A program made the translations under genes and the position numbers. The notes under the pieces are model-generated. The model worked only from the letters and a program-made list of their open reading frames with translations. It was not told the origin of the DNA and made no database searches. This document shows, one piece after another, positions 16,413 through 38,534 of a DNA stretch of 64,000 nucleotides (the stretch's first letter is position 1; the number at the start of each line of letters is the position of its first letter). Origin of the DNA: a virus; IMG/VR virus record IMGVR_UViG_3300043411_002995, positions 32,001 through 96,000 of that record. One strand, written 5' to 3'.

Positions 16413-16712
16413 CTAGGGCCGACGGCGGTTGGCCATCCGCCCCAGGGCCTTGAGGAGCACGGCGGCCAGGGCGCCGCCGGCCGCCCCCTTGCCCAGGGCC
16501 CCCAGCGCCGTCCCCTCCGGTCCGTCGTAGGGGTTGCCGGTGGCGAGGGCCTTGGCCTTGGAGGCGCCGTGGAGCACGCCCGAACTCAGGGCGCCGGTCG
16601 CCACCAGGCGCTCGACCAGGCGGTCTGGGCGCGGCGCCAGGAAGCCGGCGGTCTTCCGCAGCGGGCTGACCGCGGTCCGAACGAGCTCGTCGCTGAAGGC
16701 CTGGAGCTTCAT
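16413..16712 (-). CDS. Small virion-associated protein of the FxDELxK family
   Basis: MKLQAFSDELVRTA...RKTAG; start overlaps the tail tube stop. Confidence 0.7.
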   Translation of the reverse strand: MKLQAFSDELVRTAVSPLRKTAGFLAPRPDRLVERLVATGALSSGVLHGASKAKALATGNPYDGPEGTALGALGKGAAGGALAAVLLKALGRMANRRRP

Positions 16713-17503
16713 CACTGGTTCGCGTAGAGCGGCTGGCCGGCGCCGGCGAGCCGCATGCGGATGGGGCGGATCTGGTCGAACTGCAGCGACACGCCCTCCA
16801 TCAGCAGGACCGAGCCCGAGGAGATCGAGAGCTGGTGGCCCTGGATGTAGCACTCCTCGAGGTAGACGGCGCCCACCGTCATGTCGAGCTGGTTGCGGAA
16901 GTAGATCGCCAGCCCGGTCGGCTGGTTGAAGATGTCCGACGCCAGGTTGAGCCACAGGTCGTCGTAGCCCGGGTTGTACTTCACCCGGTGCAGCTGGGAC
17001 TGCAGGAGGGGCAGGTCCAGCATCGAGGCGTTGGGGTCGGGCACCTCGACGCCGCCGACGTTGATCGTCGCGCCCTTGGGCTTGTGGTTGAACTGGAACG
17101 GCGCGTCCGCCGCCGACTGCTTGTAGTGAGCGTAGAGCGCCTTCATCAGCGACGGCCCGTGGTAGAGCACGCGGCCGAGGGTGACCGAGCCGACGGTCCG
17201 GCCCGGGATGAAGTAGCTGCGGTTCGAGCCGATCTCGAAGATGCGCTGCAGCTGCTTCGACTGCGAGAGGCCGACGTTCTCGAGGACGCCGATCGGGAAG
17301 ACCATGTCCCCTTCGTCGGTGGTGTCGAGATCGCCCTCGGCGCCGGGCGGGCCGCCGGTGATGTCCGTGAGGCGCGGCGGCCCGGCGGCGATGAGCGTCG
17401 TCTCGGCGGAGACGAACTCGCCGCCGAGCAGCTCGGCCTGGACGTGGTGGTTGTGGAAGTCCCAGTTGTTGAAGGACGTGGTGGCTGCGGGGCGAAGGGG
17501 CAT
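16712..17503 (-). CDS. Tail tube protein (probable)
   Basis: Directly downstream of the sheath; QRIFEIGS, YLEEC, EGVSLQFD beta-strand pattern. Confidence 0.72.
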   Translation of the reverse strand: MPLRPAATTSFNNWDFHNHHVQAELLGGEFVSAETTLIAAGPPRLTDITGGPPGAEGDLDTTDEGDMVFPIGVLENVGLSQSKQLQRIFEIGSNRSYFIPGRTVGSVTLGRVLYHGPSLMKALYAHYKQSAADAPFQFNHKPKGATINVGGVEVPDPNASMLDLPLLQSQLHRVKYNPGYDDLWLNLASDIFNQPTGLAIYFRNQLDMTVGAVYLEECYIQGHQLSISSGSVLLMEGVSLQFDQIRPIRMRLAGAGQPLYANQ

Positions 17504-17532
17504 CGGCGGGTCTCCTTACCGGAACCGGTCCA

Positions 17533-20358
17533 TCAGACCAGGAGGGTCAGCGTGATGTTGTTGAGGGGCAGCGGCACGCTGATGTCGATGTCGACCTCGA
17601 CGGTGTCCGGCTGCGAGGAGGATTCCTCGATCCGCGACATCTGCCCGCCGCGGAGCGGCGCCCCGACGCGCGGCGCGCGCTGGGACTTGAGGAACTCGAT
17701 GCCGCCCTCGCCGCGGGTCTTCAGGACGTCCATCAGGCCGTCCGTGATGTTGTAGATCCCGAGGAACGGCCGGAACAGCCCGCGGAAGAACCGGGCGATC
17801 AGGTCGACGTTCTTCGTGACCGAGAACTCCTGGAAGTAGATGGTGGAGACGTCGGTGGTGAGCTGGTGGCGGATGCTCAGGGCGGCGTCGACCACCGGCT
17901 GGACGAACACCATGTTGCCGCCGCCGGCGATGGTGTCGAGCTGGGTGTCCGAGAACAGGTCGTCGGAGTGCTCGCGGCCGACGAAGCCGGTCACCGCCAG
18001 GTTGGTCATGCCGGCCTGGCTGGGCAGCCCGGCGGTGAGCCCGGCGATGACCGGCCCAGCGAAGTACCCCGGGACCTTCGTCGCCAGGGCGTTCACCGAG
18101 ATCGCCAGGACGTCGGGCCAGGTGTGGACGCACCGACGCGACGCGAACGACGTCGCGTAGCCGGCGATGAGCTGGGCCTGCTCGGTCAGGCTGAGGTCGC
18201 GGGTGATCCGGTACTCGACGTCCTCGAGCGTGCCGCCGAAGCCGGCCGTCGGGTCGGAGGCCAGGGTGAGCTGGCTCTCCGAGACGATCGCCTCGATCTC
18301 GTGGCGGGTGCCGGTGATGTACGCCTCCTCGTCCGCGGACGGCTCGATCGAGACGATGTCGAGCACGGTCAGCGTGGTGGTGGTGAGGCCGTTGAACTCC
18401 TCGGTCACCGGCACGGTCGTGTTGTCGGTCTTCACCTGGGTGGGCGAGATGACCGTCTCGATCACGTGGTCGTCGTTGTTGGCCCCGTTGGTGGCGCCGG
18501 CGACGCGCAGGACGCGGCCGACGTCGGCCGCCGTGAAGGCCGCGCCGAGGACGGTCCACACCCGCGAGGTGCCGTTGACGCCGTCCGCGTTGACGTCGCG
18601 CCCGGGCTCGCGGTTGATGCCGTAGACGGCCTGGGTGACGCCGCCACCGAAGGTCTCGTTGGCGCCGGGGGCCTCGACCGTCAGCACCGAGGTGGTGCTG
18701 ACGACCGTGCCGATCGTGAACGCGCCGTTGTTGCCGGCGTTGGCGGCGCCGCGCACGAAGAGCAGCTTGCCGACGTCGCCGGCGACGAAGGCCCCGTTGA
18801 CGAACGACCAGGCCTTGGTCGCCGCCACCACCGCGTCCGCGGCGTTGTGGGCGACCTCGCGGTCGAGGTCGCAGATCCACGCTCGCGTGGTCGACAGCAT
18901 GACCTCGGGGGTGTCGGGCTCCGGGTCGACCGTGACGCGCGCGCCGCTGACGATCGTGAGGATCTCGTACTCGACGTCGTTGAGGGCCGTGGTCGCGCCG
19001 TCGACGATGATGAACCGGCCGACGTCGGTGCCGGTGAAGGACGCCGCCGTCATCTGGATCACGTCGGCCGGCGCGTCGTCGAACCAGTCGCGCTCGTTGG
19101 GGGTGACCGAGCGGTGGACGCCCTCGACGGGGAGGTAGTCGGTGATCTCGAGGAAGTACCCGACGCCGACGTCGTCGGTGATGAACTGCCCGTTGGTGGG
19201 GTCCTTGAAGGTCAGGTTGGTCGCACCGCTGGTACCGTTGCCGGTGCCGGCGCTGGTCGCGACGCCGAGGCCGCTGGCCGGCACGACGACCTCGAGCTCG
19301 ACGAGCTTCCGGTTGAAGATGCCGACGCGCTCCTTGCCGACGGTCGACGCCGACATCCCATCGACGTGCGCCTTCACCAGCTGGTGCACCGCGGTGTTGT
19401 GGGTCATCACCGCGATGGCGTAGACGTCCTTGGCCTCGAGGTACTCGAGCGCGTCCTGGAACGCCTGCTCCTCGTCGTCGAGGAAGCCTTCGTCCAGGCC
19501 GACGAAGCTGACCTCGGTGGTCGTGTTCTGGATCGCCAGGTTGACGCCGTAGGCGCCGACGTTGGAGGGGACCACGGCGCCGACGCCGAAGACCGCCTCG
19601 ATCGAGTCGAGGTCGGTGAAGACGGTCAGGGCGTTGGCCAGGTCGGGGCGGATGGCGCGCCACGACAGGACGACGTTGCCCTCGACGACGTCGAGCGGGG
19701 TCGCGTCGGTCACCGACTGGAGGCCCGAGGCGATCTGGACGCCGGTCGCGGTCGGGGTGATGCTGCGGTCGCCGAACGAGGTGACGGGGTAGACCTCCTC
19801 CTCGCGGAACTCGAGCACGCGGTAGACGATGTTCGAGAGGGGCAGGCCTCCGCTCTGCCACTCGGCGGCGACGATCAGCTCGTTGTCGCTGTTCTTGCCG
19901 ATGACGAGCTTCCGCCCGAGGTCCGCGGCGGTGACGCCGCCGCCGGAGATGATGTCGACGTAGAACGTCGGGGCGCCGGCGGCATCGGGGTCGAACGCGG
20001 CGAACGCGTCGGTGGTCACGTCCTGGAAGAGGTTGGGCGTCGCCAGCTTCCCGGTGATGGCCTGCGCCTTCTTCACCAGGTAGGCGTCGGTCAGGGTCAC
20101 GCCGACCGGCTTGTGGGCGTTCGCCTCGGCCTCGGCCTCCGGCACGTCGGAGAGGTCGACGACGGCGCCGGTGGTCAGCCCCGTGTACGGGAAGATGCTG
20201 GTGCCGAGCTCGTCCTCGGAGTAGATCCCCGCCACCACCTCATCGGCGATCTGGAAGCCCGGGGCCACGACGCACACGGGGAGGCTGGGAAGGGACAGCG
20301 AGACGGCGGCATCCTGGAACTCCTGGATGACTTCGATTGCGGGGCGGCGGTAGGCCAT
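17533..20358 (-). CDS. Contractile tail sheath protein with inserted repeat domains
   Basis: 941 aa; C-terminal IRHQLTTD, EFSVTKNVD, VPLPLNNITLTL typical of sheath. Confidence 0.85.
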   Translation of the reverse strand: MAYRRPAIEVIQEFQDAAVSLSLPSLPVCVVAPGFQIADEVVAGIYSEDELGTSIFPYTGLTTGAVVDLSDVPEAEAEANAHKPVGVTLTDAYLVKKAQAITGKLATPNLFQDVTTDAFAAFDPDAAGAPTFYVDIISGGGVTAADLGRKLVIGKNSDNELIVAAEWQSGGLPLSNIVYRVLEFREEEVYPVTSFGDRSITPTATGVQIASGLQSVTDATPLDVVEGNVVLSWRAIRPDLANALTVFTDLDSIEAVFGVGAVVPSNVGAYGVNLAIQNTTTEVSFVGLDEGFLDDEEQAFQDALEYLEAKDVYAIAVMTHNTAVHQLVKAHVDGMSASTVGKERVGIFNRKLVELEVVVPASGLGVATSAGTGNGTSGATNLTFKDPTNGQFITDDVGVGYFLEITDYLPVEGVHRSVTPNERDWFDDAPADVIQMTAASFTGTDVGRFIIVDGATTALNDVEYEILTIVSGARVTVDPEPDTPEVMLSTTRAWICDLDREVAHNAADAVVAATKAWSFVNGAFVAGDVGKLLFVRGAANAGNNGAFTIGTVVSTTSVLTVEAPGANETFGGGVTQAVYGINREPGRDVNADGVNGTSRVWTVLGAAFTAADVGRVLRVAGATNGANNDDHVIETVISPTQVKTDNTTVPVTEEFNGLTTTTLTVLDIVSIEPSADEEAYITGTRHEIEAIVSESQLTLASDPTAGFGGTLEDVEYRITRDLSLTEQAQLIAGYATSFASRRCVHTWPDVLAISVNALATKVPGYFAGPVIAGLTAGLPSQAGMTNLAVTGFVGREHSDDLFSDTQLDTIAGGGNMVFVQPVVDAALSIRHQLTTDVSTIYFQEFSVTKNVDLIARFFRGLFRPFLGIYNITDGLMDVLKTRGEGGIEFLKSQRAPRVGAPLRGGQMSRIEESSSQPDTVEVDIDISVPLPLNNITLTLLV

Positions 20359-21045: not shown

Positions 21046-21566
21046 GGGGCACCCGGGTGGCGGCGGTTGACGGTGGCCGTGGCCTGGTCGTAGGCGTCGA
21101 CCACGCCGTTCCGCAGGACGTCCGTCGTGGTCTGCTCCACGACCCGATCCTGCTCCTGCTGCTTCTGCTCACCAAACAGGGCGGCGAGCGAGATCGTGCG
21201 GAAGGTCAGCTTGGTCTCGCCGTCGGCCCCCTGGGCTGCGCTGGGCACCCCGGAGCCGGGCGCGAACAACTCCTCGACCGACCCGGCCTCGTCGCCGAGC
21301 TCGCCGGCGACCATCTCCGAGCTCGCGGCCAGGACCGCGCCCTGGTCCTCGGAGTCGATCACCATCCGGTCACCCTCGCTGGTCACGCGCACCGCCTGGG
21401 CCCGCAGGGCGGCCGCGACGTCGATGCCCGGGTCGATGCGACCACGCAAGCGGGTCTGGAGGTTGCCCGCCAGGATCGTCCGCGCCTCGGCGTCGACCTC
21501 ATCCAGCCGGGCGACGCCGGCGGTGTCCTTCGGGCCGAAGAAGATCCAGTCGTTGAACCCGCTCAC
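21042..21566 (-). CDS. Hypothetical virion morphogenesis protein
   Basis: 4-nt overlaps with both neighbours. Confidence 0.6.
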   Translation of the reverse strand: MSGFNDWIFFGPKDTAGVARLDEVDAEARTILAGNLQTRLRGRIDPGIDVAAALRAQAVRVTSEGDRMVIDSEDQGAVLAASSEMVAGELGDEAGSVEELFAPGSGVPSAAQGADGETKLTFRTISLAALFGEQKQQEQDRVVEQTTTDVLRNGVVDAYDQATATVNRRHPGAP

Positions 21567-21820
21567 TCACCGCCCCCGCTCTTCGAGGCGTAGTCCACCA
21601 TCTGGTTCGGCGAGGTCAGGGGCGTGGGCGCGCGCTTCGCGGACGCGGGCTTGGGCTGCAGCGGCGCACCGGACTTCAGCCCTGTCTTGGCGTTGGGGCC
21701 CTGGGTCTGGTCCATGACGTCAGCGACGCCGGCGTCGTACGGCGCCGGCGCCTCGTGCTGCTGGGGGAACGCCCCCAGCTTCACGAGCTCGTCCACGAAT
21801 CCACGGAGGTAGGGTCCCAT
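21563..21820 (-). CDS. Small FxDELxK-family protein
   Basis: MGPYLRGFVDELVKLG; ATG 21820 overlaps upstream stop. Confidence 0.7.
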   Translation of the reverse strand: MGPYLRGFVDELVKLGAFPQQHEAPAPYDAGVADVMDQTQGPNAKTGLKSGAPLQPKPASAKRAPTPLTSPNQMVDYASKSGGGE

Positions 21821-23814: not shown

Positions 23815-24711
23815 TCAGGTCAGCGTCATCTTGGCCGCGGCGCGCAGGTTGCCGTAGCCCATGCCGACGTACTCCCAGGTCTGCCACGACACCATGTCAC
23901 CGCGCTTCTCGATGTAGAACTTGGTGTCGTTCAGGATGTAGAAGTTGCCGAGGTACTTCGGGTCCGTGAAGATGTACAGGGTGCCGGGCACCACGATCGA
24001 CGACTTGATCGTCACCACCAGCTTGTGGCCGAGGATGGTGTTGTACTTGTAGCCGTTGACCAGGATCTCGCTGGCCAGCGGGGAGCCGATCACGGCGCCC
24101 TCCTGGGTCATGAAGTCGTCCCAGTCGGCCTTGTGCATCAGGATGGTGCCGACGGCGAGCTCGTCGGTGTCCAGCGCCTTGAAGAGCTTGACCAGGTTCT
24201 CGCTGGTCGCCGGGCCGGCGGCCGCGGGGGCGATGGTCTTGCCGTTCGCCGCGATCACCGCGTCGGTGAACTCGATGAACTTGCCGTCCTCGATCTTCTG
24301 GATGTCCTTGACCGAGTTCTCCTCGATGACCTTGGTCACCGGGTAGTCGTAGGCCAGGAGCTCCGCCTCGTTCTTCTTGAACTTGTCGGACTCGATCTTG
24401 AAGAACGGGATCTCGTAGCGGTCGCTCTCGATGTACCGCTCGTGGGTCTTGCCCCGGAAGTTGACCGCGGCCGCCGAGCTCTGCGGCTCGATGTCGACGA
24501 TCTTGACCAGGGTGTCGTGGTTGACCGACCGCTGGCAGTCGGCCTTGGTGAGGTACTCCGGCGGCAGGATGCTGCGCACGAAGCTGACCTCGCGGAGGCG
24601 CTCGCGCACGAAGGCACCGCCGGCCTGGGCGGCCTTCTCGAGGCCGTCCGCCGTGTCCAGGCGCGAGACGAAGAGGTTGTTGAAGGTGGCCGCGTCGATC
24701 TGGGGGTCCAT
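23815..24711 (-). CDS. Major capsid protein (HK97-like fold, probable)
   Basis: 298 aa after protease, scaffold and decoration genes; strong RBS; IQKIEDGKF, ILGHKLVVT, WEYVGMGYGN. Confidence 0.8.
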   Translation of the reverse strand: MDPQIDAATFNNLFVSRLDTADGLEKAAQAGGAFVRERLREVSFVRSILPPEYLTKADCQRSVNHDTLVKIVDIEPQSSAAAVNFRGKTHERYIESDRYEIPFFKIESDKFKKNEAELLAYDYPVTKVIEENSVKDIQKIEDGKFIEFTDAVIAANGKTIAPAAAGPATSENLVKLFKALDTDELAVGTILMHKADWDDFMTQEGAVIGSPLASEILVNGYKYNTILGHKLVVTIKSSIVVPGTLYIFTDPKYLGNFYILNDTKFYIEKRGDMVSWQTWEYVGMGYGNLRAAAKMTLT

Positions 24712-25710: not shown

Positions 25711-26568
25711 TCAGCCGTTGACGATGACCACGCCGGACTTCTTCTTCTCGGGCTCGGACTTCCCGCCGTTGATCGCGCGGTACGCGAGCGCGCCGCCGCC
25801 GAGGTACAGCGCCGGCTTCTTCATCTTCTTGAGCTGGTCGTTGGTCACGCCGAGCTGCGTGCCGCCGATGTTGACGCCGAGCGCCTTGCCACCGGCCGCC
25901 CCGCCGCTCGCCGCCGAGGCGGCGGGCGTGACCGCCTGCCGGAGCTCCTTCATGGCGGGCAGGTGGGCGAAGCCCTTGTTGTCGCCCAGGATCGCGTGGA
26001 CGGTGGCGTCGGGGTACTTCTTCCGGAGCTTCTCGACGAACTTCATCTTCTCGATGTCGCCGAGGCCATCGTAGGCCCGCGCCGAGCTCTTCCAGCTGCG
26101 GAGCGCGCTCTCCGCATGCTGCTTCGCCTTGTCGACGGTGGACCCGGCGCGACTGGAGCGCAGGCTCGAGCCGATCTCGCCGAAGAACCGGCGGATGCCG
26201 CCGGGTGCCGCGGCCTTCTCGAGGAACTCGGCGATCGCCTCGGGCGAATGGCCGGCCTCGAGCGCCACCTTGATGAAGGCGGCGGTGTCCACGGTGGGCG
26301 CCGCCGGCGCCGCCGTCTTGGTCTGGCCGCCGTCGATGGCGGCGATCTCCGCCATCGTCCGACGGATGATCTCGACGGACGCGACCTTCTCGGCCAGGGT
26401 CGCGTTCCCCGCCGCGACCTGGTCGGCCGGCGAGGCCTCGGCTGCACGGCGACACCGCGCGGCGAGCTTGGAGAAGTCGGGCTTCGCCGGCGCCGCCGTC
26501 TTGGTGTGCCGAGCGCCGAGGTTGTTCACCCCGGTCTCGTTGAGCAGCTCGTCGAGTGTGAAGCCCAT
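25711..26568 (-). CDS. K-x-A-rich putative head protein
   Basis: KTA, KLA, KVA, KTA, KVA, KAA in N-half; basic C-half with hydrophobic ALYLGGGALAY. Confidence 0.7.
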   Translation of the reverse strand: MGFTLDELLNETGVNNLGARHTKTAAPAKPDFSKLAARCRRAAEASPADQVAAGNATLAEKVASVEIIRRTMAEIAAIDGGQTKTAAPAAPTVDTAAFIKVALEAGHSPEAIAEFLEKAAAPGGIRRFFGEIGSSLRSSRAGSTVDKAKQHAESALRSWKSSARAYDGLGDIEKMKFVEKLRKKYPDATVHAILGDNKGFAHLPAMKELRQAVTPAASAASGGAAGGKALGVNIGGTQLGVTNDQLKKMKKPALYLGGGALAYRAINGGKSEPEKKKSGVVIVNG

Positions 26569-26606: not shown

Positions 26607-27092
26607 TCAGCGGCCCATGTGCTTGGCGAGCAGCCGCGACACGTACTGCGGATCCGCCGCCATCTTGGCGAGGATCTTCTTCTTCCGCGCCCGGACCTTG
26701 GCGGCCGAGGTCTTCTCCTCGCCGCTGTCCTCCTTGGACTCGCGCGGCTCGGTCTTCTCCTCGTACTCGGAGTCGTCCTCCTCGTCGCCCTCCTTCTTCT
26801 CCTTCTTCTTGCCGCCCATGGCCGCGGCCATGGCCTCCTCGAAGGCGGACTTCTTGTCCGCCTCGCCGGCGCCCGGCATCGCCTCGTCGACGGCGATCTT
26901 CACCATGTCGGCGAAGACGTGGTGGGCGAGGGTACGACCGATCGCGTCGTAGTCCTGCGCCTGCTTGAGGAGGCCGGGGTCGACCTGGCTGAGGTCGCGG
27001 GCGGGCGGGAGCCCCTGCGCGGCGCGCACCTGCGCGACCTTCTCGTGATCGCGCGACTGCATCGCGCCGAAGACTGCCTTGAGCGAGTTCAT
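26607..27092 (-). CDS. K-x-A putative head/scaffold protein (DxxGR paralog)
   Basis: GGAG RBS, ATG 27092; KQAQDYDAIGRTLAHHVFADMVKIA. Confidence 0.7.
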   Translation of the reverse strand: MNSLKAVFGAMQSRDHEKVAQVRAAQGLPPARDLSQVDPGLLKQAQDYDAIGRTLAHHVFADMVKIAVDEAMPGAGEADKKSAFEEAMAAAMGGKKKEKKEGDEEDDSEYEEKTEPRESKEDSGEEKTSAAKVRARKKKILAKMAADPQYVSRLLAKHMGR

Positions 27093-27138: not shown

Positions 27139-27852
27139 TCAGGCCTGGAGGTCGCGGACCGTGGCGAAGCCGAGCGGCGAGCCGCCACCCAGGCCGATCG
27201 CGGCCGCCTCGGGGTCGGTGCCGGTGCCCTGGCCGGCCGAGATGGTCTTGGTCGGGGCGAGGGTGTCCGAGTAGGTCTGCTTCGGGCCGGGGCCCGAGGT
27301 GACCATCTTCTCGTCGTGGTTCGCCGACCCGGCGAAGTTGGTCTCGAGCGTGGGCAGGCCGCGCTCGCCGAGCGCCGGGGTCTTCGCCCCCGACTCCGAC
27401 TCGGTCATCTGGTTGTCGGGGGCGGTCGTCGCCAGGCCCTCGGCCAGCTTGTGGAACTCGGAGAAGAAGCCGCGCGCCATGATGCGGCCGGCGGCGTCGT
27501 ACTCCTGCGCGACCTTCATGATCTGGCCGTCGTCCTCGTCGGCGACCTGCTCCTCGGCCTCGGCGGCCGCGAGCTTCTCCGCCATGGCGGCGAAGTCGAC
27601 GTCGTCCTGCTCGACCTCGGGCGCCGGCGCGTGAGCGGCGGCCGCGGCCTGCTTGACGTGATCCTGATCGGTGAGCGCGAGGTAGAGGCTGGCGAGCGAG
27701 TTCATCTGGTCTCCTCCGGAGGCGAGCTTGGTGTGGTCGCCGCCGGTGGCGGCAGGCTTGCGCGCCGGCGGCGCGCCGGTCGCGGAATCGTGGGTCGTGG
27801 TCTCGGTGCTGGCGGACGCGAACTTGTTCATCAGGTCGCTGAGGGTGGGCAT
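27139..27852 (-). CDS. K-x-A putative head/scaffold protein (DxxGR paralog)
   Basis: KVAQEYDAAGRIMARGFFSEFHKLA; second strong RBS plus ATG at 27705. Confidence 0.7.
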   Translation of the reverse strand: MPTLSDLMNKFASASTETTTHDSATGAPPARKPAATGGDHTKLASGGDQMNSLASLYLALTDQDHVKQAAAAAHAPAPEVEQDDVDFAAMAEKLAAAEAEEQVADEDDGQIMKVAQEYDAAGRIMARGFFSEFHKLAEGLATTAPDNQMTESESGAKTPALGERGLPTLETNFAGSANHDEKMVTSGPGPKQTYSDTLAPTKTISAGQGTGTDPEAAAIGLGGGSPLGFATVRDLQA

Positions 27853-27854: not shown

Positions 27855-29672
27855 TCAGATCTCCTTCATGCGCCGCGCGAGCCGCTGGACCGACTCGAGG
27901 ATCGAGGCGTCGAGAGCCGGATCGCTCATCAGCCCGCCGAACTTGGTGAGGTGGTGAGTCGCGCGATCGTGCGGTGCTGCAACAGACGCGAGTCGCTCGA
28001 AGCCTCCACGGCTCCCGGCTTGCGATCGTTGCTGTTGAACACCTGCATGGATGTACGCGAGTGGGATCAATCCTGTGATCCCGGCCGTCTTGCGCTGATG
28101 GTAGGCTGGGCCGTTTTTTGCGTCAAGTCCGGCACCTGTGCCGTGGGGCTCCAGATCCCGCGGCGCCCCCAGCTGTTGCGCTGCCACGGTCGCCCCGACA
28201 CCTGCGCTGATCAGGAGCGGGAGCATCCAAGGGTGCTTCGCGATCGCGCGCACCGGCGACGGCGCCTTCTCGACCAGCTGGGGGAACGCCCGACGGAAGA
28301 CCATGAACCCGGCGGCGAGTGCGAGGCTGGCGGGCACCACGCCGGGCATACCCGACGAGAGCCGTCGCTGCTCGTTCGTCATGGGATACCACTGGCTGTC
28401 GCGGTTGTACCCCTCGATCTCCCCGCGCTTCTCCATCCGCTCGAGGCGGGCGGCGAGGATCTCGGGATAGCAGCTCCGGTCGGCGATGTAGGGGCGCAGC
28501 TGCAGCGCGACCTTCTCGCTGACGTCGTGCTCGCTCAGGTGCTCGAGCTCGCGTGCCCACTTCGGCATCGGGCCAGGCCGGTGCTCGTCGAACACCAGGC
28601 GGTGGGCCGCCAGCTTGTCCGCGAGGGCACGGGCGCCCTGCTTGACCAGGATGATCCGCTGGAACTCCTGCGGGCGCAGGTCGATCCCCAACGCGGCGAG
28701 CGTGGCGAAGATCTCGCGCAGCGGGAAGCCCGTGAGCTGGTTGAGCAGCGCCGGCGGCAACGCCGGCTCGGTCGACTTGACCGCACCGGCGTCCTCCATG
28801 AAGGCGTCGACCTTCGCCTGGTCGGACGGCGTCACGCCCTCGATCTTCGTCTCGCCCGCCGGGACCTCCTTGGTCAGGTCGGCGGTCTTGCGCGCCGAGC
28901 TCGCCTTCTCGGCGGCCGCGTACTTGGCGTAGAAGCTCTCGCCGAGCTCGGCCGAGCTCGGCCGGATCTCGTAGATGCACCCATCGTGCGCGACCTTCTT
29001 CAAGACGTGGCTCGCCTTCTCGGCACCGATCGTCACGAAGGAAATGTCGAAGAACTTCGGCTTGTCGTTGAACGCGAAGACCCGCCGTCCGTCCGGCAGG
29101 ATCTTGTTCATCTGGTAGCGGAGGTGCGGGCAGTACTCGGCCCGGTTCTTCGCGCGGTTGCCGCAGACGGAGCAGCGGTCCCACGGGACCCGGCACCCCA
29201 TCGAGACGTCCCAGTACCGGTTCGCGGCGAGGTCGCCGAGGATGTCCTGGCACTTCGCGTCGTCGACGCGGACGATCAGCAGGACGCGGTGCATGCCCGG
29301 GTCGTAGGCCGAGAGCGTGACCTTCTCGCCGTACGCCCGCGCCGGGTCCTTGTTGACGTGGTGCTTGAACGGGTAGGCGTAGTGCTGGAACGTCTCGTAG
29401 CCGTACTCGGGACCGGGGTGGCGCAGCGCCTCCTCGGGGAAGTAGTCGCCGTTGACGTTCGACCCGTAGTACTCGCCCGACCCCATCGCGTCGATGAGCA
29501 GCTGGGTCTTGCCCGGGATCGGCGCCGCCGATCGCAGGTACTGCTCGATGGACGCGGGGAGCTCGCGCGCCATCTTGATGTGGCCGATCGACCGCTCGAG
29601 GTTGGCCTCGATCGGGAAGATGTGCGGGCCGGTCCGCGCGTCGTACCCAGCGTAGTTGATCAGCTTGTACAA
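27855..29672 (-). CDS. Prohead maturation protease with Zn-finger insertion and long C-terminal extension
   Basis: TTG 29672; NVNGDYF, HHVNKD, DVSMGC, CSVCGN...CPH, FFDISFVTIGAE; upstream of the capsid gene. Confidence 0.75.
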   Translation of the reverse strand: MYKLINYAGYDARTGPHIFPIEANLERSIGHIKMARELPASIEQYLRSAAPIPGKTQLLIDAMGSGEYYGSNVNGDYFPEEALRHPGPEYGYETFQHYAYPFKHHVNKDPARAYGEKVTLSAYDPGMHRVLLIVRVDDAKCQDILGDLAANRYWDVSMGCRVPWDRCSVCGNRAKNRAEYCPHLRYQMNKILPDGRRVFAFNDKPKFFDISFVTIGAEKASHVLKKVAHDGCIYEIRPSSAELGESFYAKYAAAEKASSARKTADLTKEVPAGETKIEGVTPSDQAKVDAFMEDAGAVKSTEPALPPALLNQLTGFPLREIFATLAALGIDLRPQEFQRIILVKQGARALADKLAAHRLVFDEHRPGPMPKWARELEHLSEHDVSEKVALQLRPYIADRSCYPEILAARLERMEKRGEIEGYNRDSQWYPMTNEQRRLSSGMPGVVPASLALAAGFMVFRRAFPQLVEKAPSPVRAIAKHPWMLPLLISAGVGATVAAQQLGAPRDLEPHGTGAGLDAKNGPAYHQRKTAGITGLIPLAYIHAGVQQQRSQAGSRGGFERLASVAAPHDRATHHLTKFGGLMSDPALDASILESVQRLARRMKEI

Positions 29673-29676: not shown

Positions 29677-30516
29677 TCACTTCCACCGGGCGTTCCCGCC
29701 CGCGACGGACGCTGACGGCCTGACCCGCGGCGTCTGCGGCGCCTGCTCGCTCCGAGCTTCGGCCGCCTGCATCCGCTGCACCTTCTCCTCGATGGTGACC
29801 GGCCCACGCTTCGGCGCCGTCGGCCGGACTGCGCCGCCCATCCGCCCCTCGCGGATCTCGCCCACGTTGCGGTTGGCATCGGACCAGCGCTGAGCCTTGT
29901 TCGAGGGGGCGTTGTAGGCGGCCTCGGCGCGCGCCTTGGTCGCGGTGTAGTCCGTCCTCCGCGCCTGCATCCGCGCCTTGCGCGCGTCGGCCTCGGCCTG
30001 CGTGAGCTGCTTCCCAGAACCTGACGCGCGCGCCTGGGCGTTGACCAGCTCGCCGCCGACCATCACCTTGCGGCCCGGCGCGTTGTTGGCGTCGAACTTC
30101 TTGTTGTAGGCCTGCTCGCTGATGACGCGCTGCGCGCGCTGCGGGGCTGTCTCCCACGGCACGCCGGGGTCACCGCGACCGCCACCGCCCCCCTGCTTCT
30201 TCGGGGTGGCGGGCGGTGGAGTCGGATCTCCGGCCTTGCTCGGGCGGTAGCCGGGCGACGGACGCCATCCCTGGGGTGCGTTCTTCGCCGGCGACTCCAT
30301 CTTCTGGGTCGGGATGGCGCCGAGCAGGTTGCCGCCGGGCGCGCCCATCTGGTTGGGCGGCTTGGGCGCCGGCGCGCCGGGGACGCCGGTCGAAGGAGGG
30401 CGAACGATGCCGCCGGGCGGCGGCGGACGTGGAACCGACGGCACGCCAGCCGGCGCACCCCAAGGCCCTGCGACCTTGAGGAGCTCGTCGGCGAAGCCTG
30501 CGAGGTATCGGTTCAC
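29677..30516 (-). CDS. FxDELxK-family Pro/Gly-rich basic protein
   Basis: MNRYLAGFADELLKVAG. Confidence 0.7.
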   Translation of the reverse strand: MNRYLAGFADELLKVAGPWGAPAGVPSVPRPPPPGGIVRPPSTGVPGAPAPKPPNQMGAPGGNLLGAIPTQKMESPAKNAPQGWRPSPGYRPSKAGDPTPPPATPKKQGGGGGRGDPGVPWETAPQRAQRVISEQAYNKKFDANNAPGRKVMVGGELVNAQARASGSGKQLTQAEADARKARMQARRTDYTATKARAEAAYNAPSNKAQRWSDANRNVGEIREGRMGGAVRPTAPKRGPVTIEEKVQRMQAAEARSEQAPQTPRVRPSASVAGGNARWK

Positions 30517-30528
30517 GTCGATGGCCGA

Positions 30529-30933
30529 TCAGCCGCCCTGCGGGCGCGGCGGGAGCGGACCGTTGCCCAGGGTGACCTTGGCCTTCGGCGCGGCCTTCGG
30601 CGCGGGCATGCCCGGGTTCTTGTGCTGGCCGGTGACCGGGTTCATCTTGGTCTTGCTGCCGAACGCCTGGCCGGGGGCGTTGGTGTCGGTGGGCGCCGGG
30701 ACCTTGGGCACGCCGCCGCCCGGGCCCTTGCGGCCGGCGCGGCCACCCGCGAACGGGTCGTAGCCCGAACCGGTGGCGTCGGCGAGCTTGCTCAGCTCGT
30801 CGGCGAACGCGCGCGCGGTGATCCGGCCCGCGGCGTCCTCCTCCTCCGCCTGCTTGATGATCTCGGCAGCCTGCTTCTCGAGCTCGGCATCCTTCGACGC
30901 CATGGTGTCGTACACGTCCGTGAGGGTTCGCAT
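30529..30933 (-). CDS. FxDELxK / DxxGR family protein
   Basis: AAGGAG RBS; KQAEEEDAAGRITARAFADELSKLA. Confidence 0.75.
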   Translation of the reverse strand: MRTLTDVYDTMASKDAELEKQAAEIIKQAEEEDAAGRITARAFADELSKLADATGSGYDPFAGGRAGRKGPGGGVPKVPAPTDTNAPGQAFGSKTKMNPVTGQHKNPGMPAPKAAPKAKVTLGNGPLPPRPQGG

Positions 30934-30951: not shown

Positions 30952-31941
30952 CTAGCGCCCCGTGATCAGTTTTCGCACGCCGCCCAGAACAGTACCAGCG
31001 GCGTTGACAGGCGGCTTGCGCCCGAACATCCGCCCCACCCGGCGCGTCGCGCCGCCGGCGAGGCCCAGGCCCATCTTGCCGAGGACCAGGGCGGCGATGG
31101 CCGACCCCTGTGGGCTGCTGGTGATGGCCTTCACGGCCTCGTCGGCCTTGCCGGCCGCGCCGCGCGCGGCGATGCCGACGTTCTTCTTGAACTCGCTGCC
31201 GCGATCGCCGATGTAGTTCGAGGCGCGGTTCGCGTACTCCTCGGCGGAGGCGGCGCTCTTCTCGATCCCGAAGGACGTGCCGAGGAACCGGGGCGAGGCG
31301 TGCTTGCCCATCTGCGAGCTCGAGGTTGCGCGGAGCGACATCGAGCCGCCCTCCACGAGCCCGTGCTTCGCGCCGGGGGCGCCGTGGCTGGGCGCGCGCG
31401 CCTCGCTGCTGTGGAAGCGCTCGCCACCGGCCTCGAGCGGCGCCGGCTGCTCCTTGGCCGGACGGTGGAACCCGGTCGGCAGGCCGCTGTCGGCGTCCCA
31501 GTCGCTGGGCGCCGCGCCCGCGCACTTCACCGCGCCCTTCTTCTTGGGCTGGCCGGTGCCGTACATGCCGCCGCCGGCCTCCTCGCCACCGGAGTCCATC
31601 CCGCCAGGGGTCACGGCGGGGCTGGCGCCGGCCGGCTCGCTCGGCTTGGCCGGCTTGGTCGACGGGTCGTCCTTCGCGGCCTCCGCCATCTTCTGGTGGA
31701 AGGTCGCGTCGTCACGCCCGGGGAGGTCGCGGAAGAACCGCCCGCCGCGCGGCTGCGCGGCCTTCTGGAAGAACATCCCATCGCCAGCGACCTTCCCGAG
31801 CGGCTGGCGCTCGGGGTTGGTCTGCGGGTGCTTCTTCTCGGGGAGGTCGCTCATGTTCGGGGTCTCCTTCGCCCACTCTCGCGCCTTCTTGGGGTTCGTG
31901 GCGAAGAAGAGGCGCTGCTGGGCCTTGGACTCGAAGGGCAC
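30952..31941 (-). CDS. Putative head protein, low complexity
   Basis: MPFESKAQQR...AREWAKET N-terminus; KVA, KAA, KSA sites; C-terminal hydrophobic segment. Confidence 0.7.
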   Translation of the reverse strand: MPFESKAQQRLFFATNPKKAREWAKETPNMSDLPEKKHPQTNPERQPLGKVAGDGMFFQKAAQPRGGRFFRDLPGRDDATFHQKMAEAAKDDPSTKPAKPSEPAGASPAVTPGGMDSGGEEAGGGMYGTGQPKKKGAVKCAGAAPSDWDADSGLPTGFHRPAKEQPAPLEAGGERFHSSEARAPSHGAPGAKHGLVEGGSMSLRATSSSQMGKHASPRFLGTSFGIEKSAASAEEYANRASNYIGDRGSEFKKNVGIAARGAAGKADEAVKAITSSPQGSAIAALVLGKMGLGLAGGATRRVGRMFGRKPPVNAAGTVLGGVRKLITGR

Positions 31942-31945: not shown

Positions 31946-32797
31946 TCAGCCTTCGCTGGCGCCGCCGCGGAGGCGCTCCTGCAGGGCGGTGTGGTAGGCC
32001 ATCACGCCCTCCTTCCGACCGAGCATCCGGGCCTTCTGGGCGACCTCCATCACGTCGTTGGTCCCCTCGTCGTAGCCCTTCTGCTTGCCCTTGCTGCTGC
32101 CGAGCGCCGCACCACCGACACCGGCGGCGGCGCCGAGGCCGAGCATCTTGGCGACGCCGCGGCCGGCGCTGGGCGCGGTCTGCGCGGCCGGGCGCCCGAA
32201 GCGCATCATGCGGGCGAGGCGCCCCGCACCGGGCGAGGCGACCTTGACGAGTTCGTCCTGGAATCCGCGCATGAAGTTCATCGGCATCGCCTTCTTCTCC
32301 TGGGGCTGACTCGACTGCTCGAGCATACAGCGGACGAACGCCGCCTTGGGTGGAACTGCCTTGCGTGTCGCTACGTGATCGATGAGGTACTCGCTGAACG
32401 TGTCGGCGAAGTCCTCTTCCGGGCTCGTCTTGGCGTACTCGTCGACGAACCCAGCGCCGGCGGTGGACGCCGTCCACGCGGCGAGCAGCCGCGGGTTCGT
32501 TCGCACGATCGTGTGGGCGAGTTCATGAAAGACAGATCGCCGAAACTGCTCAGGATCGATCCGGTCGCCATCGTACACGCCCTTGTCGTAAACGACAATT
32601 GCACCCTCGGCCGGCTCGTACTTCGAGTGCCCCGGTGCGCTCGGCGGCGCATCTTCGAGGACCGGGCGCCGGACGAGCGTGCGGAGGTTCGGGTTCTCCT
32701 CGAGCCAGCGCGCGGGGAGCGGTGCGAGGAACCGCTGCAGCTCGGCCACCTCCGCCGGCGTCCAACGGCCCTCGAGCTCGAGCCCGCGAACCCTCAC
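31946..32797 (-). CDS. Zincin-like metallopeptidase domain fused to an FxDELxK-family protein
   Basis: FHELAH plus YAKTSPEEDFADTF; C-part MPMNFMRGFQDELVKVA with its own RBS at 32287. Confidence 0.65.
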   Translation of the reverse strand: MRVRGLELEGRWTPAEVAELQRFLAPLPARWLEENPNLRTLVRRPVLEDAPPSAPGHSKYEPAEGAIVVYDKGVYDGDRIDPEQFRRSVFHELAHTIVRTNPRLLAAWTASTAGAGFVDEYAKTSPEEDFADTFSEYLIDHVATRKAVPPKAAFVRCMLEQSSQPQEKKAMPMNFMRGFQDELVKVASPGAGRLARMMRFGRPAAQTAPSAGRGVAKMLGLGAAAGVGGAALGSSKGKQKGYDEGTNDVMEVAQKARMLGRKEGVMAYHTALQERLRGGASEG

Positions 32798-34281
32798 AGG
32801 ACCTTCTTGAGGTCGGCGAAGAGCTTCGTGAGGATGCCGCCGGCGAGCGCCGACCCAAGGCCGACCAGGCCGGCGAATCGGAGCGGGTGCTGCTCGCGCC
32901 AGCTCTCGGACGCGTGGCGAATCCCCGGCGTCGGCGTCTTGATGGTGGGGAGCAGCTCGTAGGGGTGTCGCCCGGTGATGAACGCGTCGCGCTCGGAGGG
33001 ATGGATGCGGGCGCGGATGTGCTTGCCGGACTCGGTGCCGTAGAGGTACATCGCGCCCATCGCGGCGGGGATCGCGGTGGTCAACGCGCCGGCGACGAAG
33101 TCCGGGGAGGTCCCGACCTCCTTGGCGGCGCCGGCGATCCGACGGCCGGCACCAGGTGAACCCATGATCTCGGCGGACTGGTGTCCGATCTGCGAGCCGA
33201 TGTGCTTGAGGTCGTCCCAGGTATCACCGACGAAGCGGCCGATGCCGATGGCTCCACCTCTGGCGGCGTCGATGATGCCGCTGGTCTTCTCGATGTCCTC
33301 CGGCGGCTCCTGCGCCTCCACCCGCGCCTGCCGCATGTACTTCCGCGCGAGCGCCAGGCCGACGATCGGCGGGATGGTGCCCAGGAGGTAGCTCGCCCAA
33401 GCCGGACCGAGCCGCTTGAACGACGCCCGCGCGGCCGCGGGGCCTTCGGTCTTGGCGATGTGCGAGAGGGCGAGGATCGAGGCCTTGGCCTCGGGGTAGA
33501 GCTGCGTCGCGGCCAGCGTGGCGCCCATGATCTCCGGGGCGTTGTCCTGCATGAAGGAGATCGCCTTGTCGTCGATCGTGCCTGGCATCATCTCCTTGAT
33601 GCGGTCGCCAGCGATCAGCGCGATCGGCAGCGCCGCGTAGGCGGCGCGCTGCAGGCCGGGGCCGACCTTGGAGCGCACCTTGCCGAGCCGGCTGCCGGTG
33701 AAGTCGGCGGCATGGCCGAGTTCGTGGAGGACCTTCTCCTTGCCGATCTCCTTGAGGAAGACCTCCTTGGTCGCGTGGTTGTAGTAGTTCCCGCTGAGCA
33801 GGCCGTTCTGGAAGTTCAGGCGAACGCCCTTGTTGGCCAGGTCGTGCTTGCCGATGAAGGAGTCGACGACCTTCTGGATCTCGGGGATCTTCTTCGCCGC
33901 CTCCATGATGGCGTCCTTGTCCGCGGCATCGTGGGCCAGCCGCAGACGGGCGGAGACGTTGAAGAGGCCCATCAGCTTGGACGGCTGCACCTGCGGCCGC
34001 GCTTCCGCCAGCGTGGGCGCGTTGCGGAGCTGCAGCGCGTTGTGCCAGGAGACCGATCCCTTGTCCGCCACGTTCCCGAGCGCCCAGCCGGCCCCCATCG
34101 TCGCGAGCCGGCGCGCGAACGGCGCGGTGCCGAGCGCGACGAGGCTCGCGATCGCGCGCTCGCCAGGATCGAGGCTGGTCGGGCTCGTCTCCCGCTCGGG
34201 CGGCAGGTACGGCGCCGTCGACGGCGCGTCGACGGCCGTCTTCTCGCTCAAGAAGACGCGGAGCGGGTCAGGGCGGGCCAT
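32794..34281 (-). CDS. Putative virion zincin-like protein with hydrophobic segments
   Basis: VLHELGHA and downstream YPEAKAS; EKTA near the N-terminus. Confidence 0.65.
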   Translation of the reverse strand: MARPDPLRVFLSEKTAVDAPSTAPYLPPERETSPTSLDPGERAIASLVALGTAPFARRLATMGAGWALGNVADKGSVSWHNALQLRNAPTLAEARPQVQPSKLMGLFNVSARLRLAHDAADKDAIMEAAKKIPEIQKVVDSFIGKHDLANKGVRLNFQNGLLSGNYYNHATKEVFLKEIGKEKVLHELGHAADFTGSRLGKVRSKVGPGLQRAAYAALPIALIAGDRIKEMMPGTIDDKAISFMQDNAPEIMGATLAATQLYPEAKASILALSHIAKTEGPAAARASFKRLGPAWASYLLGTIPPIVGLALARKYMRQARVEAQEPPEDIEKTSGIIDAARGGAIGIGRFVGDTWDDLKHIGSQIGHQSAEIMGSPGAGRRIAGAAKEVGTSPDFVAGALTTAIPAAMGAMYLYGTESGKHIRARIHPSERDAFITGRHPYELLPTIKTPTPGIRHASESWREQHPLRFAGLVGLGSALAGGILTKLFADLKKVL

Positions 34282-34993: not shown

Positions 34994-34997
34994 CTGA

Positions 34998-35336
34998 TCA
35001 CCTCTTGAACTTGGCGGCATCGTAGTCCCGGTGGAGCCGCTTCAGCTGGCCCTTGGCGGGGCGCTTGTTGAAGAGGTCGTTGAAGTTCGTGTAGGCGGCC
35101 TCGCTCGCCTGTGCGTGGCCCGTGTTCGGGTCGACGGCCGCGGCCAGGTAGCGCGGCTTGTCGCCACCGCGGAGCCCGCGCTTGTAGGCGCTCGAGCTCG
35201 CCATGCCCGTGGCCGCGACCGTGCCGGCCGCGGTGACCGCGATCAAGGGGTGCTTGACCGTGAACTTGCCCACGCCCTTCAGCACGCCGCCGACCTTGAC
35301 GAGCTCGTCCGCGAAGCCGGTGAGGAACGCATCCAT
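34998..35336 (-). CDS. Small FxDELxK-family protein
   Basis: MDAFLTGFADELVKVGG; TGATG overlap. Confidence 0.72.
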   Translation of the reverse strand: MDAFLTGFADELVKVGGVLKGVGKFTVKHPLIAVTAAGTVAATGMASSSAYKRGLRGGDKPRYLAAAVDPNTGHAQASEAAYTNFNDLFNKRPAKGQLKRLHRDYDAAKFKR

Positions 35337-37034: not shown

Positions 37035-37056
37035 TCGGGATCACTCCTCCTTTGCG

Positions 37057-37076
37057 GGCATAAGAAAGGACAGAAG
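37057..37076 (+). promoter_or_regulatory. Candidate phage-RNAP promoter motif, copy 3
   Basis: GGCATAAG-N8-GAAG then RBS. Confidence 0.65.
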
Positions 37077-37086
37077 GAGCCACACC

Positions 37087-37422
37087 ATGTCCATCGATCC
37101 CAAGTCGCAGTCCACCGTTTCCCCCATCACCCCGCCGACGAAGGTCGACGAGTCCCCCACCCGCGAGCAGCAGGCGTTGGACCTCCACAGCAAGCTGCTG
37201 TCCGCCAACCCCGGCTGCGATCTGGAGGTGACGCTCGGTGCCAAGTACGGCCCCGACGCGATCAACCTCGAGACGCGCAACCGGGGTGCGGACAAGTTCG
37301 CTGCGGGGGTCCTCGCCGGCATCGCGTTCGCGGGACTCGCCGGCCTCATCGGCGTGGCGGTGGCGAAGGCCGTGACGCCGCGCCCCCAGGTCAAGAGCCT
37401 CGGGGACGACGACACCAAGTAG
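37087..37422 (+). CDS. Small membrane protein
   Basis: AAGGAG RBS; transmembrane FAAGVLAGIAFAGLAGLIGVAVA. Confidence 0.7.
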   Translation: MSIDPKSQSTVSPITPPTKVDESPTREQQALDLHSKLLSANPGCDLEVTLGAKYGPDAINLETRNRGADKFAAGVLAGIAFAGLAGLIGVAVAKAVTPRPQVKSLGDDDTK

Positions 37423-37433
37423 CAACCTCAACC

Positions 37434-37498
37434 ACCACTCGTGAGAGTGTTTTCCGCCGCGCAAGCGGCGAAACACCCTCGCGGGTGGTTTCTTACCC
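37434..37498 (+). terminator. Long hairpin with GCAA tetraloop plus TTTCTTACCC tail
   Basis: About 24-bp imperfect stem (2 G-U pairs, 1 mismatch, 2-nt bulge). Confidence 0.65.
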
Positions 37499-37518
37499 AT
37501 GACCAGGATCGCTCCGCG

Positions 37519-37536
37519 GGCATAAGAAGAGGGAAC
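37519..37536 (+). promoter_or_regulatory. Candidate phage-RNAP promoter motif, copy 4
   Basis: GGCATAAG-N6-GAAC. Confidence 0.65.
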
Positions 37537-37556
37537 CCCCAACCAAAGGATTCCCC

Positions 37557-37979
37557 ATGCGCAACAAGCTCGTGGCGACGCTCGACATCGTGTTGAGCGC
37601 CCGCCTCATCCATGCAGAGATTGAACGCACCGTGGAGCAGGCCCACAAGGTCTGCGACCCCCACCTGGCGATCTCGTTCGCCAACGCCCGGCAGACCGTG
37701 TCGAACCCCGTCGACATGGCCGTCGAGCTCGAGATGCTCGACGCCGCCATCGACCTCTCGAAGGAGAACCTGGCAGAGATCGAGGGCCTGAAGCGCTCGA
37801 TCGCCAAGTCGCTCCAGGGCCACGAGGTCCTGGAAGCGCTCGGCAGCGCGCTCGTGTCGCAAGACATGATCGACGCCGTCGAGGAGAAGTTCCAGGTCAC
37901 CGGGCTCAGGCTCGAGGAGATGGAGAAGCTGCGGGACCTCACCGTGTCCCGCGCCCGCGACCTCACCAGCCAGCTCTAG
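37557..37979 (+). CDS. Helical hypothetical protein
   Basis: AAAGGA RBS; coiled-coil character. Confidence 0.7.
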   Translation: MRNKLVATLDIVLSARLIHAEIERTVEQAHKVCDPHLAISFANARQTVSNPVDMAVELEMLDAAIDLSKENLAEIEGLKRSIAKSLQGHEVLEALGSALVSQDMIDAVEEKFQVTGLRLEEMEKLRDLTVSRARDLTSQL

Positions 37980-38017
37980 GGCTGGTGGGTGCGCGGGGCT
38001 TCTCTGCTCTCTTAGCC
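37964..38017 (+). terminator. Hairpin plus pyrimidine tract ending CTTAGCC
   Basis: CACCAGCC / GGCTGGTG stem spanning the stop codon, then TTCTCTGCTCTCTTAGCC. Confidence 0.5.
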
Positions 38018-38036
38018 TTCGGGTACACTCGCCACC

Positions 38037-38534
38037 ATGACGCCGTTCCTCCAGGCCTTCACCGATGAGCTGGTCAAGCTCGGCGCGGACAACGACCTGG
38101 TCGACGTCTTCCGGGAGGCCAAGAAGGAGACCCGGAGGCAGCCGGCGCGGGACAGCGCCCTGAGCGCGCTGCGCGGGAACGGCACCCCGGTCAGCCGCAA
38201 CTACCTCGCGTCGATGTTGATCGGCGGGATCTCGGTGCCGGCGGTGGCGGTCATGAGCAAGCGGATCTCGCGGGCCCTGAACAACAAGACCGTGCAGCGT
38301 GAGCTCCGCGGCCTTGGGCCGATGGCGCACCCGAAGAAGGTCCGGGCGCTGCGCGACGAGTTGCACACCGGCCCGTCGTTCGGGCGCGCGCGCCCCGGCA
38401 CGCCGTTGAACACCCGGCCGCTCATCACGCACGGCGAGGCCGCCGGTCTTGCGGCGAGCGGCGTCGCGACCGGTGGCCTGGTGCAGATGATCCGGGACTA
38501 CTTCGCGGGCAGCGCGCCGACGACCCCGCGCTAG
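38037..38534 (+). CDS. FxDELxK-family protein (on the opposite strand to the rest)
   Basis: MTPFLQAFTDELVKLG; TACACT -10 element 7 nt upstream of ATG. Confidence 0.72.
   Translation: MTPFLQAFTDELVKLGADNDLVDVFREAKKETRRQPARDSALSALRGNGTPVSRNYLASMLIGGISVPAVAVMSKRISRALNNKTVQRELRGLGPMAHPKKVRALRDELHTGPSFGRARPGTPLNTRPLITHGEAAGLAASGVATGGLVQMIRDYFAGSAPTTPR

Follow-up and report, generated by a model that had tools for sequence, protein, structure and literature searches.

A predicted amphipathic helix on otherwise unrelated proteins of a clade of large uncultured phages as a candidate prohead-targeting tag

Why should one short peptide recur on a series of phage proteins that otherwise have nothing in common? 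The question is raised by IMG/VR record IMGVR_UViG_3300043411_002995, an uncultivated viral genome consisting of one linear contig of 111,705 bp (guanine-plus-cytosine [GC] content, 68%; CheckV completeness, 71%), of which bases 32001 to 96000 make up the 64,000-nucleotide stretch analyzed here, referred to as the window. A preliminary description of this stretch, made from its letters alone, had claimed seven copies of a shared peptide, here called the tag, and had proposed that it is an address that loads varied proteins into the phage head. All seven were recovered by a six-frame translation searched for F-x-D-E-L-x-[KR]-x-[AG], and an eighth lies beyond the window at genome position 105775 (minus strand), so that the 111.7-kb genome holds eight copies against a chance expectation of 0.0096 (from six-frame amino acid frequencies); the motif occurred in none of 100 dinucleotide shuffles. 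The first bases of the phenylalanine codons are at 16697, 21799, 30495, 30807, 32263, and 35315 on the minus strand and at 38058 on the plus strand, the positions quoted earlier being the start codons of the tag-bearing open reading frames (ORFs). The seven proteins of the window are the following.

16413-16712, minus strand: tagged protein A, 99 amino acids, starting MKLQAFSDELVRTA; net charge of +9, with a Gly/Ala-rich hydrophobic stretch
21563-21820, minus strand: tagged protein B, 85 amino acids, starting MGPYLRGFVDELVKLGA
29677-30516, minus strand: tagged protein C, 279 amino acids, with a GTG start, VNRYLAGFADELLKVAG; Pro/Gly-rich and then basic (+23)
30529-30933, minus strand: protein D, 134 amino acids, with the tag internal at residues 43 to 52 in a longer helix, EEDAAGRITARAFADELSKLA
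31946-32797, minus strand: protein E, an ORF of 283 amino acids with the tag at about residue 179
34998-35336, minus strand: tagged protein F, 112 amino acids, starting MDAFLTGFADELVKVGG; basic, with a hydrophobic stretch
38037-38534, plus strand: tagged protein G, 165 amino acids, starting MTPFLQAFTDELVKLGA; basic, with a hydrophobic helix

The tag had been placed mostly within the first 20 residues. This is true of A, B, C, F, and G, in which, as in the eighth copy, the phenylalanine is residue 6 or 8 counted from the start codon, but it is not true of D or E, so that the window holds five copies at protein starts, one internal copy (D), and one ambiguous copy (E). The frame of E is coding from ∼32790 down to 31946, as indicated by GC content at third codon positions, and in all close relatives, including one with a GC content of 51%, more than 200 codons upstream stay open. 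In this 283-amino-acid protein, the tag accordingly occupies a position near residue 179. Directly before this tag stand an AGGAG-like site and an ATG, marking a candidate nested form of 113 amino acids from 32287 (MPMNFMRGFQDELVKVA), and E may therefore also give rise to a short product that starts just ahead of its tag. Two arrangements of neighboring frames were seen here. The 495-amino-acid gene at 32794-34281 and gene E overlap by GTGA on the minus strand, and their counterparts in relative L001 (779-2947) form one unbroken frame of 723 codons, a possible fusion or nested-gene arrangement. The TGA stop codon of D is in frame with the GTG start of C, four codons upstream of it (30516-30531, minus strand), and read-through of this TGA would fuse two tag-bearing proteins.

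Synonymous codons vary among the tag copies, indicating that the tag is conserved at the protein level rather than by recent duplication of DNA; the same variation rules out a DNA-level repeat or a promoter as its origin. The remainders of the proteins are unrelated, in agreement with the preliminary description, given that the best pairwise BLASTP match among the eight proteins with the tag removed has an E value of 0.025 over 13 residues. They had also been called basic, which holds for most of them (net charge after the tag of +9, 0, +23, +8, +8, +11, and +12 for A to G and +2 for the eighth protein), and Gly, Ala, and Pro together account for a share of 0.30 to 0.51 after the tag. Searches of the seven tagged window proteins against Pfam and PHROGs gave nothing below an E value of 0.1.

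The tag is common across a clade of uncultured phages of 85 to 210 kb, with 6 to 10 copies per genome, and hundreds more proteins of these relatives carry the same 15-residue helix. Relatives of the capsid protein in IMG/VR comprise a first group of 8 contigs with 90 to 97% identity and GC contents of 51 to 68% and a second group of ∼27 contigs with 42 to 46% identity and lengths up to 210 kb. The named relatives are all distant, namely, Salmonella phage Arash (31% identity of the capsid protein), Vibrio phages D69, D148, and D181, and Bacillus phage G. The lineage is one of HK97-fold phages with kinship to Arash and more remote kinship to phage G. We observed that the capsid protein is 90 to 97% identical across L001 to L008 (local GC content, 51% to 68%) and that the adjoining genes diverge strongly, an unusually high conservation of the capsid protein, given that the hosts probably differ.

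A DNA-pattern scan of IMG/VR for the tag, limited to GC-rich codons, matched at least 117 stretches. Among the matches listed, nearly all read “M + 5-13 residues + [AG]F.DEL.K[IL][AG]” on contigs of 130 to 210 kb, often with several matches per contig. By tag profile, the copy number is 8 in this genome, compared with 9 in a close relative and 6 to 10 in each of three complete genomes of 191 to 202 kb. Searching phage proteomes with a tag model had been proposed beforehand as a check; the tag recurs in relatives of the clade, and the model found no copy in Arash. Likewise, a relaxed regular-expression scan of the coding sequences around the capsid gene of phage G found no tag. In Arash and Vibrio phage D69, only degenerate forms are present at syntenic genes, e.g., L-x-D-G-L-x-K-A-A: the N terminus reads ...LREGLVDGLLKAAG in Arash gp221 and ...TLTDGMDKVAS in the corresponding D69 protein. 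Positional orthologues from the relatives with 90 to 97% identical capsid proteins retain the tag, among them those of protein B, and the remainder of these proteins diverges. By this comparison of sequences, the tag is under selection at the protein level.

The tag does not correspond to a known family in the resources that we searched. When a 42-residue alignment of tags was run as a profile against 5.8 billion proteins, only 11 matches reached an E value of ≤10, all “hypothetical,” the tag being too short for significance in a database of this size. Protein cluster look-ups and the ESM Atlas returned no names for the tagged proteins, only unnamed clusters, no Pfam or PHROG family covered the tag in searches of the tagged proteins, and a full-text literature search for the tag peptide strings found no biology paper. 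The tag is most likely a capsid-targeting-like peptide that has not been described before, in a different lineage and with scaffold-embedded copies that are unusual.

It is common for unrelated proteins to bind host factors through short conserved peptides at their termini, and the tag could accordingly be a short linear motif for a host clamp, chaperone, or AAA+ protease, or a degron. We hold this to be highly improbable. The tag is unchanged across contigs with GC contents of 51 to 68%, presumably from different hosts, which argues for a phage-encoded partner, and copies of it sit in scaffold-like proteins (see below). To our knowledge, it is also unlike known clamp-binding or ClpX motifs.

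To describe the anatomy of the tag, we aligned 115 distinct copies on the phenylalanine as position 0. The resulting pattern has hydrophobic residues at −4/−3, [AG] at −1, F at 0, D at +2, E at +3, L at +4, and K at +6, where positions 0, +2, +3, +4, and +6 are partly set by the search pattern that retrieved most copies. Position +1 is variable, position +7 is Ile, Leu, or Val in 87% of the copies, position +8 is Ala or Gly in 96%, and conservation stops sharply after +9. Copies found by the profile in whole genomes have the same core, with an occasional change of D to T, Q, S, or N. Plotted on a helical wheel, the tag has its hydrophobic residues on one side and D, E, and K on the opposite side, and it is predicted to be an amphipathic α-helix of ∼15 residues. 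AlphaFold2, given the 42-residue N terminus of protein F together with 42 aligned tags, placed a helix at residues 3 to 21 (mean predicted local distance difference test of 89 for residues 1 to 10 and 76 for residues 11 to 20), followed by a low-confidence region with no predicted secondary structure. The idea that the tag is clipped off at K-x-[AG] was not supported, since K-[ILV]-[AG] merely closes the conserved helix and about a fifth of the copies are internal or C terminal; K-x-A is a low-information pattern at the helix end, and a cleavage code of this form likewise found no support. A near-tag is found at the start (MGFTLDELLNETG) of a basic 285-amino-acid protein at 25711-26568 (minus strand), with an extra residue between F and D and with N in place of K, which falls below detection by the tag model.

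We then asked where in proteins the tag is located and what follows it. An in-frame stop lies at most 30 codons upstream in 51 of the 115 distinct copies, which must therefore be N terminal, and 50 of these 51 have a start codon 2 to 16 codons before the phenylalanine. The upstream open frame measures 31 to 49 codons in 20 further copies and is longer in 44, of which ∼17 are not coding-like upstream and ∼24 are apparently truly internal. Overall, about three quarters of the copies are N terminal. Given that the others are internal or C terminal, a free N terminus is not essential; in L099, for example, a scaffold-like ORF ends 15 residues past the tag. Tandem double tags were noted in L063 (1314-2219) and L085 (1403-1759).

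We collected 90 distinct proteins with an N-terminal tag, the shortest of 18 and the longest of 748 amino acids. Their charge after the tag has a median of +8.4 per 100 residues and is net positive in 95%, compared with about 0 to 1 per 100 amino acids and 50 to 57% positive for background ORFs, for which we used crude ORF sets of two genomes (Mann-Whitney P = 5e-22). Unrelated Pfam domains begin after the tag, which shows it to be modular: an SNF2 helicase (three proteins), DUF6321 (residues 25 to 98), an HNH endonuclease, an amidase-like Peptidase_C92/NlpC-P60 domain, and MazG with a P-loop NTPase. These data lend strong support to the earlier idea that varied cargo carries a modular tag, the same helix preceding unrelated domains clade-wide. 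On one 155-kb contig (L140, 1279-2924, minus strand), three consecutive genes are tagged, encoding an HNH protein, a DUF6321 protein, and a protein of unknown function.

Many tagged proteins contain Gly/Ala-rich hydrophobic stretches. This raises the possibility that small membrane proteins acting in lysis, in exclusion, or as channels use the tag as an amphipathic helix for membrane binding, for which the stretches in several of them (Kyte-Doolittle 19-residue maximum of 1.2 to 1.7) and the Atlas structure neighbors of protein G, which are membrane proteins with TM-scores of only ≤0.52, could be cited. However, most of the hydrophobic stretches are under the usual transmembrane threshold, the invariant D, E, and K suggest a specific protein contact and not lipid, and the tag is carried by soluble enzymes and, internally, by acidic soluble scaffold-like proteins. 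Membrane binding is therefore very improbable in our estimation. The Gly/Ala-rich stretches at 16413-16712, 31946-32287, 34998-35336, 38037-38534, and 27855-28700 are glycine-zipper-like, as are stretches in the syntenic Arash virion proteins gp220 and gp221 (L036).

The internal copies lead to the head genes of this phage, where three genes lie in a row toward the capsid gene.

27855-29657, minus strand: prohead maturation protease, start uncertain, with an N-terminal domain of the T4 gp21/herpesvirus assemblin fold
27139-27852, minus strand: scaffold-like acidic protein, 237 amino acids, isoelectric point of 4.5, with a degenerate internal tag, YDAAGRIMARGFFSEFHKLA
26607-27092, minus strand: second scaffold-like paralogue, 161 amino acids, with a more degenerate copy, YDAIGRTLAHHVFADMVKIA

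The latter two, directly downstream of the protease gene, are termed scaffold-like on account of their position and composition; the acidic protein gave no match to a known fold or family. They have in common with protein D a helix of ∼30 residues that ends in the tag (BLASTP E values of 1e-8 and 7e-4), and all relatives examined, close and distant, have a gene with this extended helix 2.5 to 4 kb upstream of the capsid gene, the version of the distant relatives being ...GRVMAH[AS][FY]TQE[LM]xKI[AG]. Two sequences nearby resemble the second half of the tag, namely, the N-terminal arm of the capsid protein (DGLEKAAQ; EGKEKIAE in distant relatives) and DLEKTAQ or DLEKIAQ near scaffold-like N termini (L017, L024, L025, and L027). 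We tried the capsid arm (DGLEKAAQ) and the scaffold N-terminal DLEKTAQ as members of the tag family and rejected them, as they score below the threshold of the tag model.

The protease is recognized mainly by its predicted structure. An AlphaFold2 model of 28680-29657 (minus strand) matched T4 gp21 (5jbl_A) in VIA-align with a Z of 10.1 (root mean square deviation of 3.3; 140 of 165 residues), followed by the proteases of varicella-zoster virus (Z = 6.1) and human cytomegalovirus (Z = 5.0), and in Foldseek T4 gp21 ranked second with a probability of 0.51. By sequence, it has a weak PHROG protease match and is 31% identical to Arash gp222; its C-terminal half is hydrophobic and Gly/Ala-rich.

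The neighborhood of such a protease suggests the main alternative to targeting, in which the helix is mainly a recognition or cleavage site of the gp21-fold prohead protease and incorporation depends on other parts of the proteins. The spread of the tag over cargo N termini and scaffold-like proteins, beside a gp21-fold protease, resembles that of the gp21 sites of T4, and the invariant residues (F, D, E, L, and K) might occupy P4 to P3′ of a site cut after Glu, the cut made by gp21/phiKZ-type proteases (PMC5694885). Such a site and targeting are not mutually exclusive, as T4 shows. On the other hand, the 13 to 15 conserved residues far exceed the 3-residue motifs of known prohead protease sites, neither the L/I-x-E of T4 nor the [SAG]-x-E of phiKZ is conserved in the tag, whose position +1 varies, and the N terminus of the capsid protein fails to match the tag model. 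We regard a role as mainly a protease site as unlikely.

The location of tagged genes in the genome bears on targeting to the prohead. The virion module of this phage, on the minus strand, is the region in which the tag was found, and the following genes serve as landmarks in the window.

17533-20358, minus strand: sheath-like gene with tail-tube-like gene (phrog_279)
23815-24711, minus strand: major capsid protein, HK97 fold (phrog_2522, 1e-15; PDB 6wkk, phage G gp27, 7e-10)
38531-40510: large terminase (phrog_675, 2e-51)
47574-53954, minus strand: single-chain RNA polymerase of 2,126 amino acids, homologous to the RNA polymerase genes of relatives
56437-58476: portal

Gene A comes after the tail-tube-like gene, gene C is directly upstream of the protease gene, and gene G, which has orthologues in L090 and L041, adjoins the large terminase gene. 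Gene order in the complete genome G003 matches that of this contig between portal and tail tube (111 to 165 kb), and all 7 strong tags of G003 are inside this block, with 2 weak tags beside the counterpart of the operon that bears the eighth copy in our genome. The tube-to-portal block contains 7 of 10 tags in G001 and 3 of 6 in G002. Among the matches listed in the IMG/VR scan, 59 of the 117 tag-pattern loci hold a homologue of at least one of 14 structural genes, compared with 28% of random windows of the same size from G003. Two side observations concern genes of this region. The gene at 30952-31941 (minus strand) has an N terminus, VPFESKAQQRLFFA, that matches phrog_1375 (unknown function; E = 3e-4) and looks like a second short N-terminal motif common to phage proteins. 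The RNA polymerase genes of relatives adjoin tagged genes (38% identity over ∼1,500 amino acids in G003), and Arash has separate β and β′ subunits versus the single chain here.

Proteomic data from Arash bear on the fate of the tagged proteins. In L148, the tagged helicase is orthologous over its full length to Arash gp217 (39% identity; E = 3e-99), which starts at the equivalent of L148 residue 18 and thus is without the first ∼17 residues, i.e., the tag. In an Arash virion preparation, gp217 was represented by 1,148 spectra and gp221 by 355 (PMC10585845, Table 2), and the RNA polymerase subunits were the most abundant proteins or among the most abundant (PMC10585845). By analogy with Arash, the 2,126-amino-acid RNA polymerase of our phage is probably packaged as well.

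A further possibility is that the tag docks to another hub of late infection, such as an assembly chaperone, the tail or baseplate, the RNA polymerase, or a DNA-containing replication compartment. The positions of tagged genes after tail-tube, neck, and baseplate-operon genes, and in some cases outside the structural block, would agree with this, as would the DNA- or nucleotide-directed nature of the enzyme cargo (SNF2 helicase, HNH, and MazG). Against it stand the same helix in scaffold-like paralogues, which all examined relatives encode between protease and capsid gene, the NlpC/P60-like amidase cargo, which fits a virion-borne enzyme better, and the abundance of the helicase orthologue in the Arash virion preparation (PMC10585845). 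We consider another hub quite unlikely; this role, like membrane and host-factor binding, is less well supported than prohead targeting.

We give about even chances to the tag bringing otherwise unrelated proteins into the assembling prohead, by analogy with the capsid-targeting sequence (CTS) of T4. The scaffold-like copies, the enrichment near structural genes, the basic cargo, and the helicase orthologue in the Arash preparation make such loading into the head plausible. The tag would then be a portable docking peptide on mostly small basic proteins and, in relatives, on enzymes too. Using the same helix as the scaffold-like paralogues, the cargo would dock on the scaffold core itself or on the inner face of the capsid protein and would end inside the head with the DNA, possibly to be ejected on infection.

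Several observations weigh against prohead targeting. Some tagged genes, including 3 of 6 in G002, belong to operons of the tail or baseplate or fall beyond the structural block, and the enrichment of structural genes near tags is only ∼1.8-fold. About 21% of the copies are internal or C terminal. The 2,126-amino-acid RNA polymerase is without a tag, and gp217 is present in the Arash preparation without one, showing that the tag is not required for that protein. Mass spectrometry of Arash listed 116 proteins as virion associated, including ribonucleotide reductases (PMC10585845), a permissive listing in which presence is weak evidence. Finally, all carriers of the canonical tag are uncultured contigs.

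More tentatively, and with doubt outweighing belief on our part, the N-terminal tag could be a portable copy of the prohead-binding helix of the scaffold-like paralogues, a form of scaffold mimicry that predicts the whole packaged or ejected set of the clade. If true, this set would comprise the SNF2 helicase, HNH, MazG, and NlpC/P60-like amidase proteins and many small basic glycine-zipper-like proteins. The scaffold-embedded copies suggest a testable origin for such tags, with cargo mimicking scaffold. Prohead targeting, if true, would be a second, sequence-unrelated instance of the capsid-targeting principle of T4, and it would allow the packaged and ejected proteins of a large uncultured clade to be read directly off metagenomic sequence; such proteins are the likeliest to counter host defense at the moment of entry. 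It would also provide a candidate handle, unrelated in sequence to the CTS of T4, for loading foreign proteins into capsids. If the tag is instead a protease site or another docking motif, it is still a strongly conserved marker of a class of late proteins.

The closest known parallel is found in T4, whose diverse internal proteins have in common only an N-terminal CTS of 10 to 20 residues and are loaded into the scaffolding core (PMC3012670), the CTS being cut off by gp21 (PMC3012670, PMC5694885). Like the CTS of IPI to IPIII, Alt, and gp24, the tag is mostly a short N-terminal peptide on unrelated, mostly basic, fast-evolving proteins, and both phages have a gp21-fold prohead protease in the head module, with a multiprotein scaffold core being plausible here. 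In contrast to the CTS, the tag shows no kinship to MKTYQEFIAE or MATLTSEVIAE beyond a loose aromatic...F...E spacing, does not conserve the L/I-x-E site of gp21, and is also found inside scaffold-like proteins, at internal or C-terminal positions, and on enzymes such as the SNF2 helicase.

The phiKZ-like giants SPN3US and 201phi2-1 have ejected or internal head proteins, some with hydrophobic or transmembrane segments, with gp21-type processing, and they package a virion RNA polymerase (PMC5694885). Their propeptides measure 80 to 130 residues and have only a 3-residue cleavage motif in common, whereas here one helix of 15 residues is conserved. Encapsulins resemble the proposed role of the tag in that a short peptide on diverse cargo docks inside an HK97-fold shell, but they have no protease or scaffold. 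Encapsulin cargo peptides are usually C terminal and Gly/Leu-rich and are not acidic-basic amphipathic helices. We rejected an encapsulin cargo-loading peptide as an explanation, given that the tag is mostly N terminal and that this genome is that of a tailed phage with terminase, portal, sheath, and tube genes.

Binding of capsids by scaffold helices is known from the C-terminal helix-turn-helix of P22 gp8 and from the C terminus that the 80alpha scaffold has in common with SaPI1 CpmB. As in these systems, a short helix would dock the scaffold to the shell, and other proteins bearing the helix would be incorporated along with it; the C-terminal tag in the scaffold-like ORF of L099 is also placed as in classical scaffolds. 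The helix of the window differs from those of the P22 and 80alpha scaffolds in being located in the middle of the scaffold-like paralogues and at the N terminus of the cargo.

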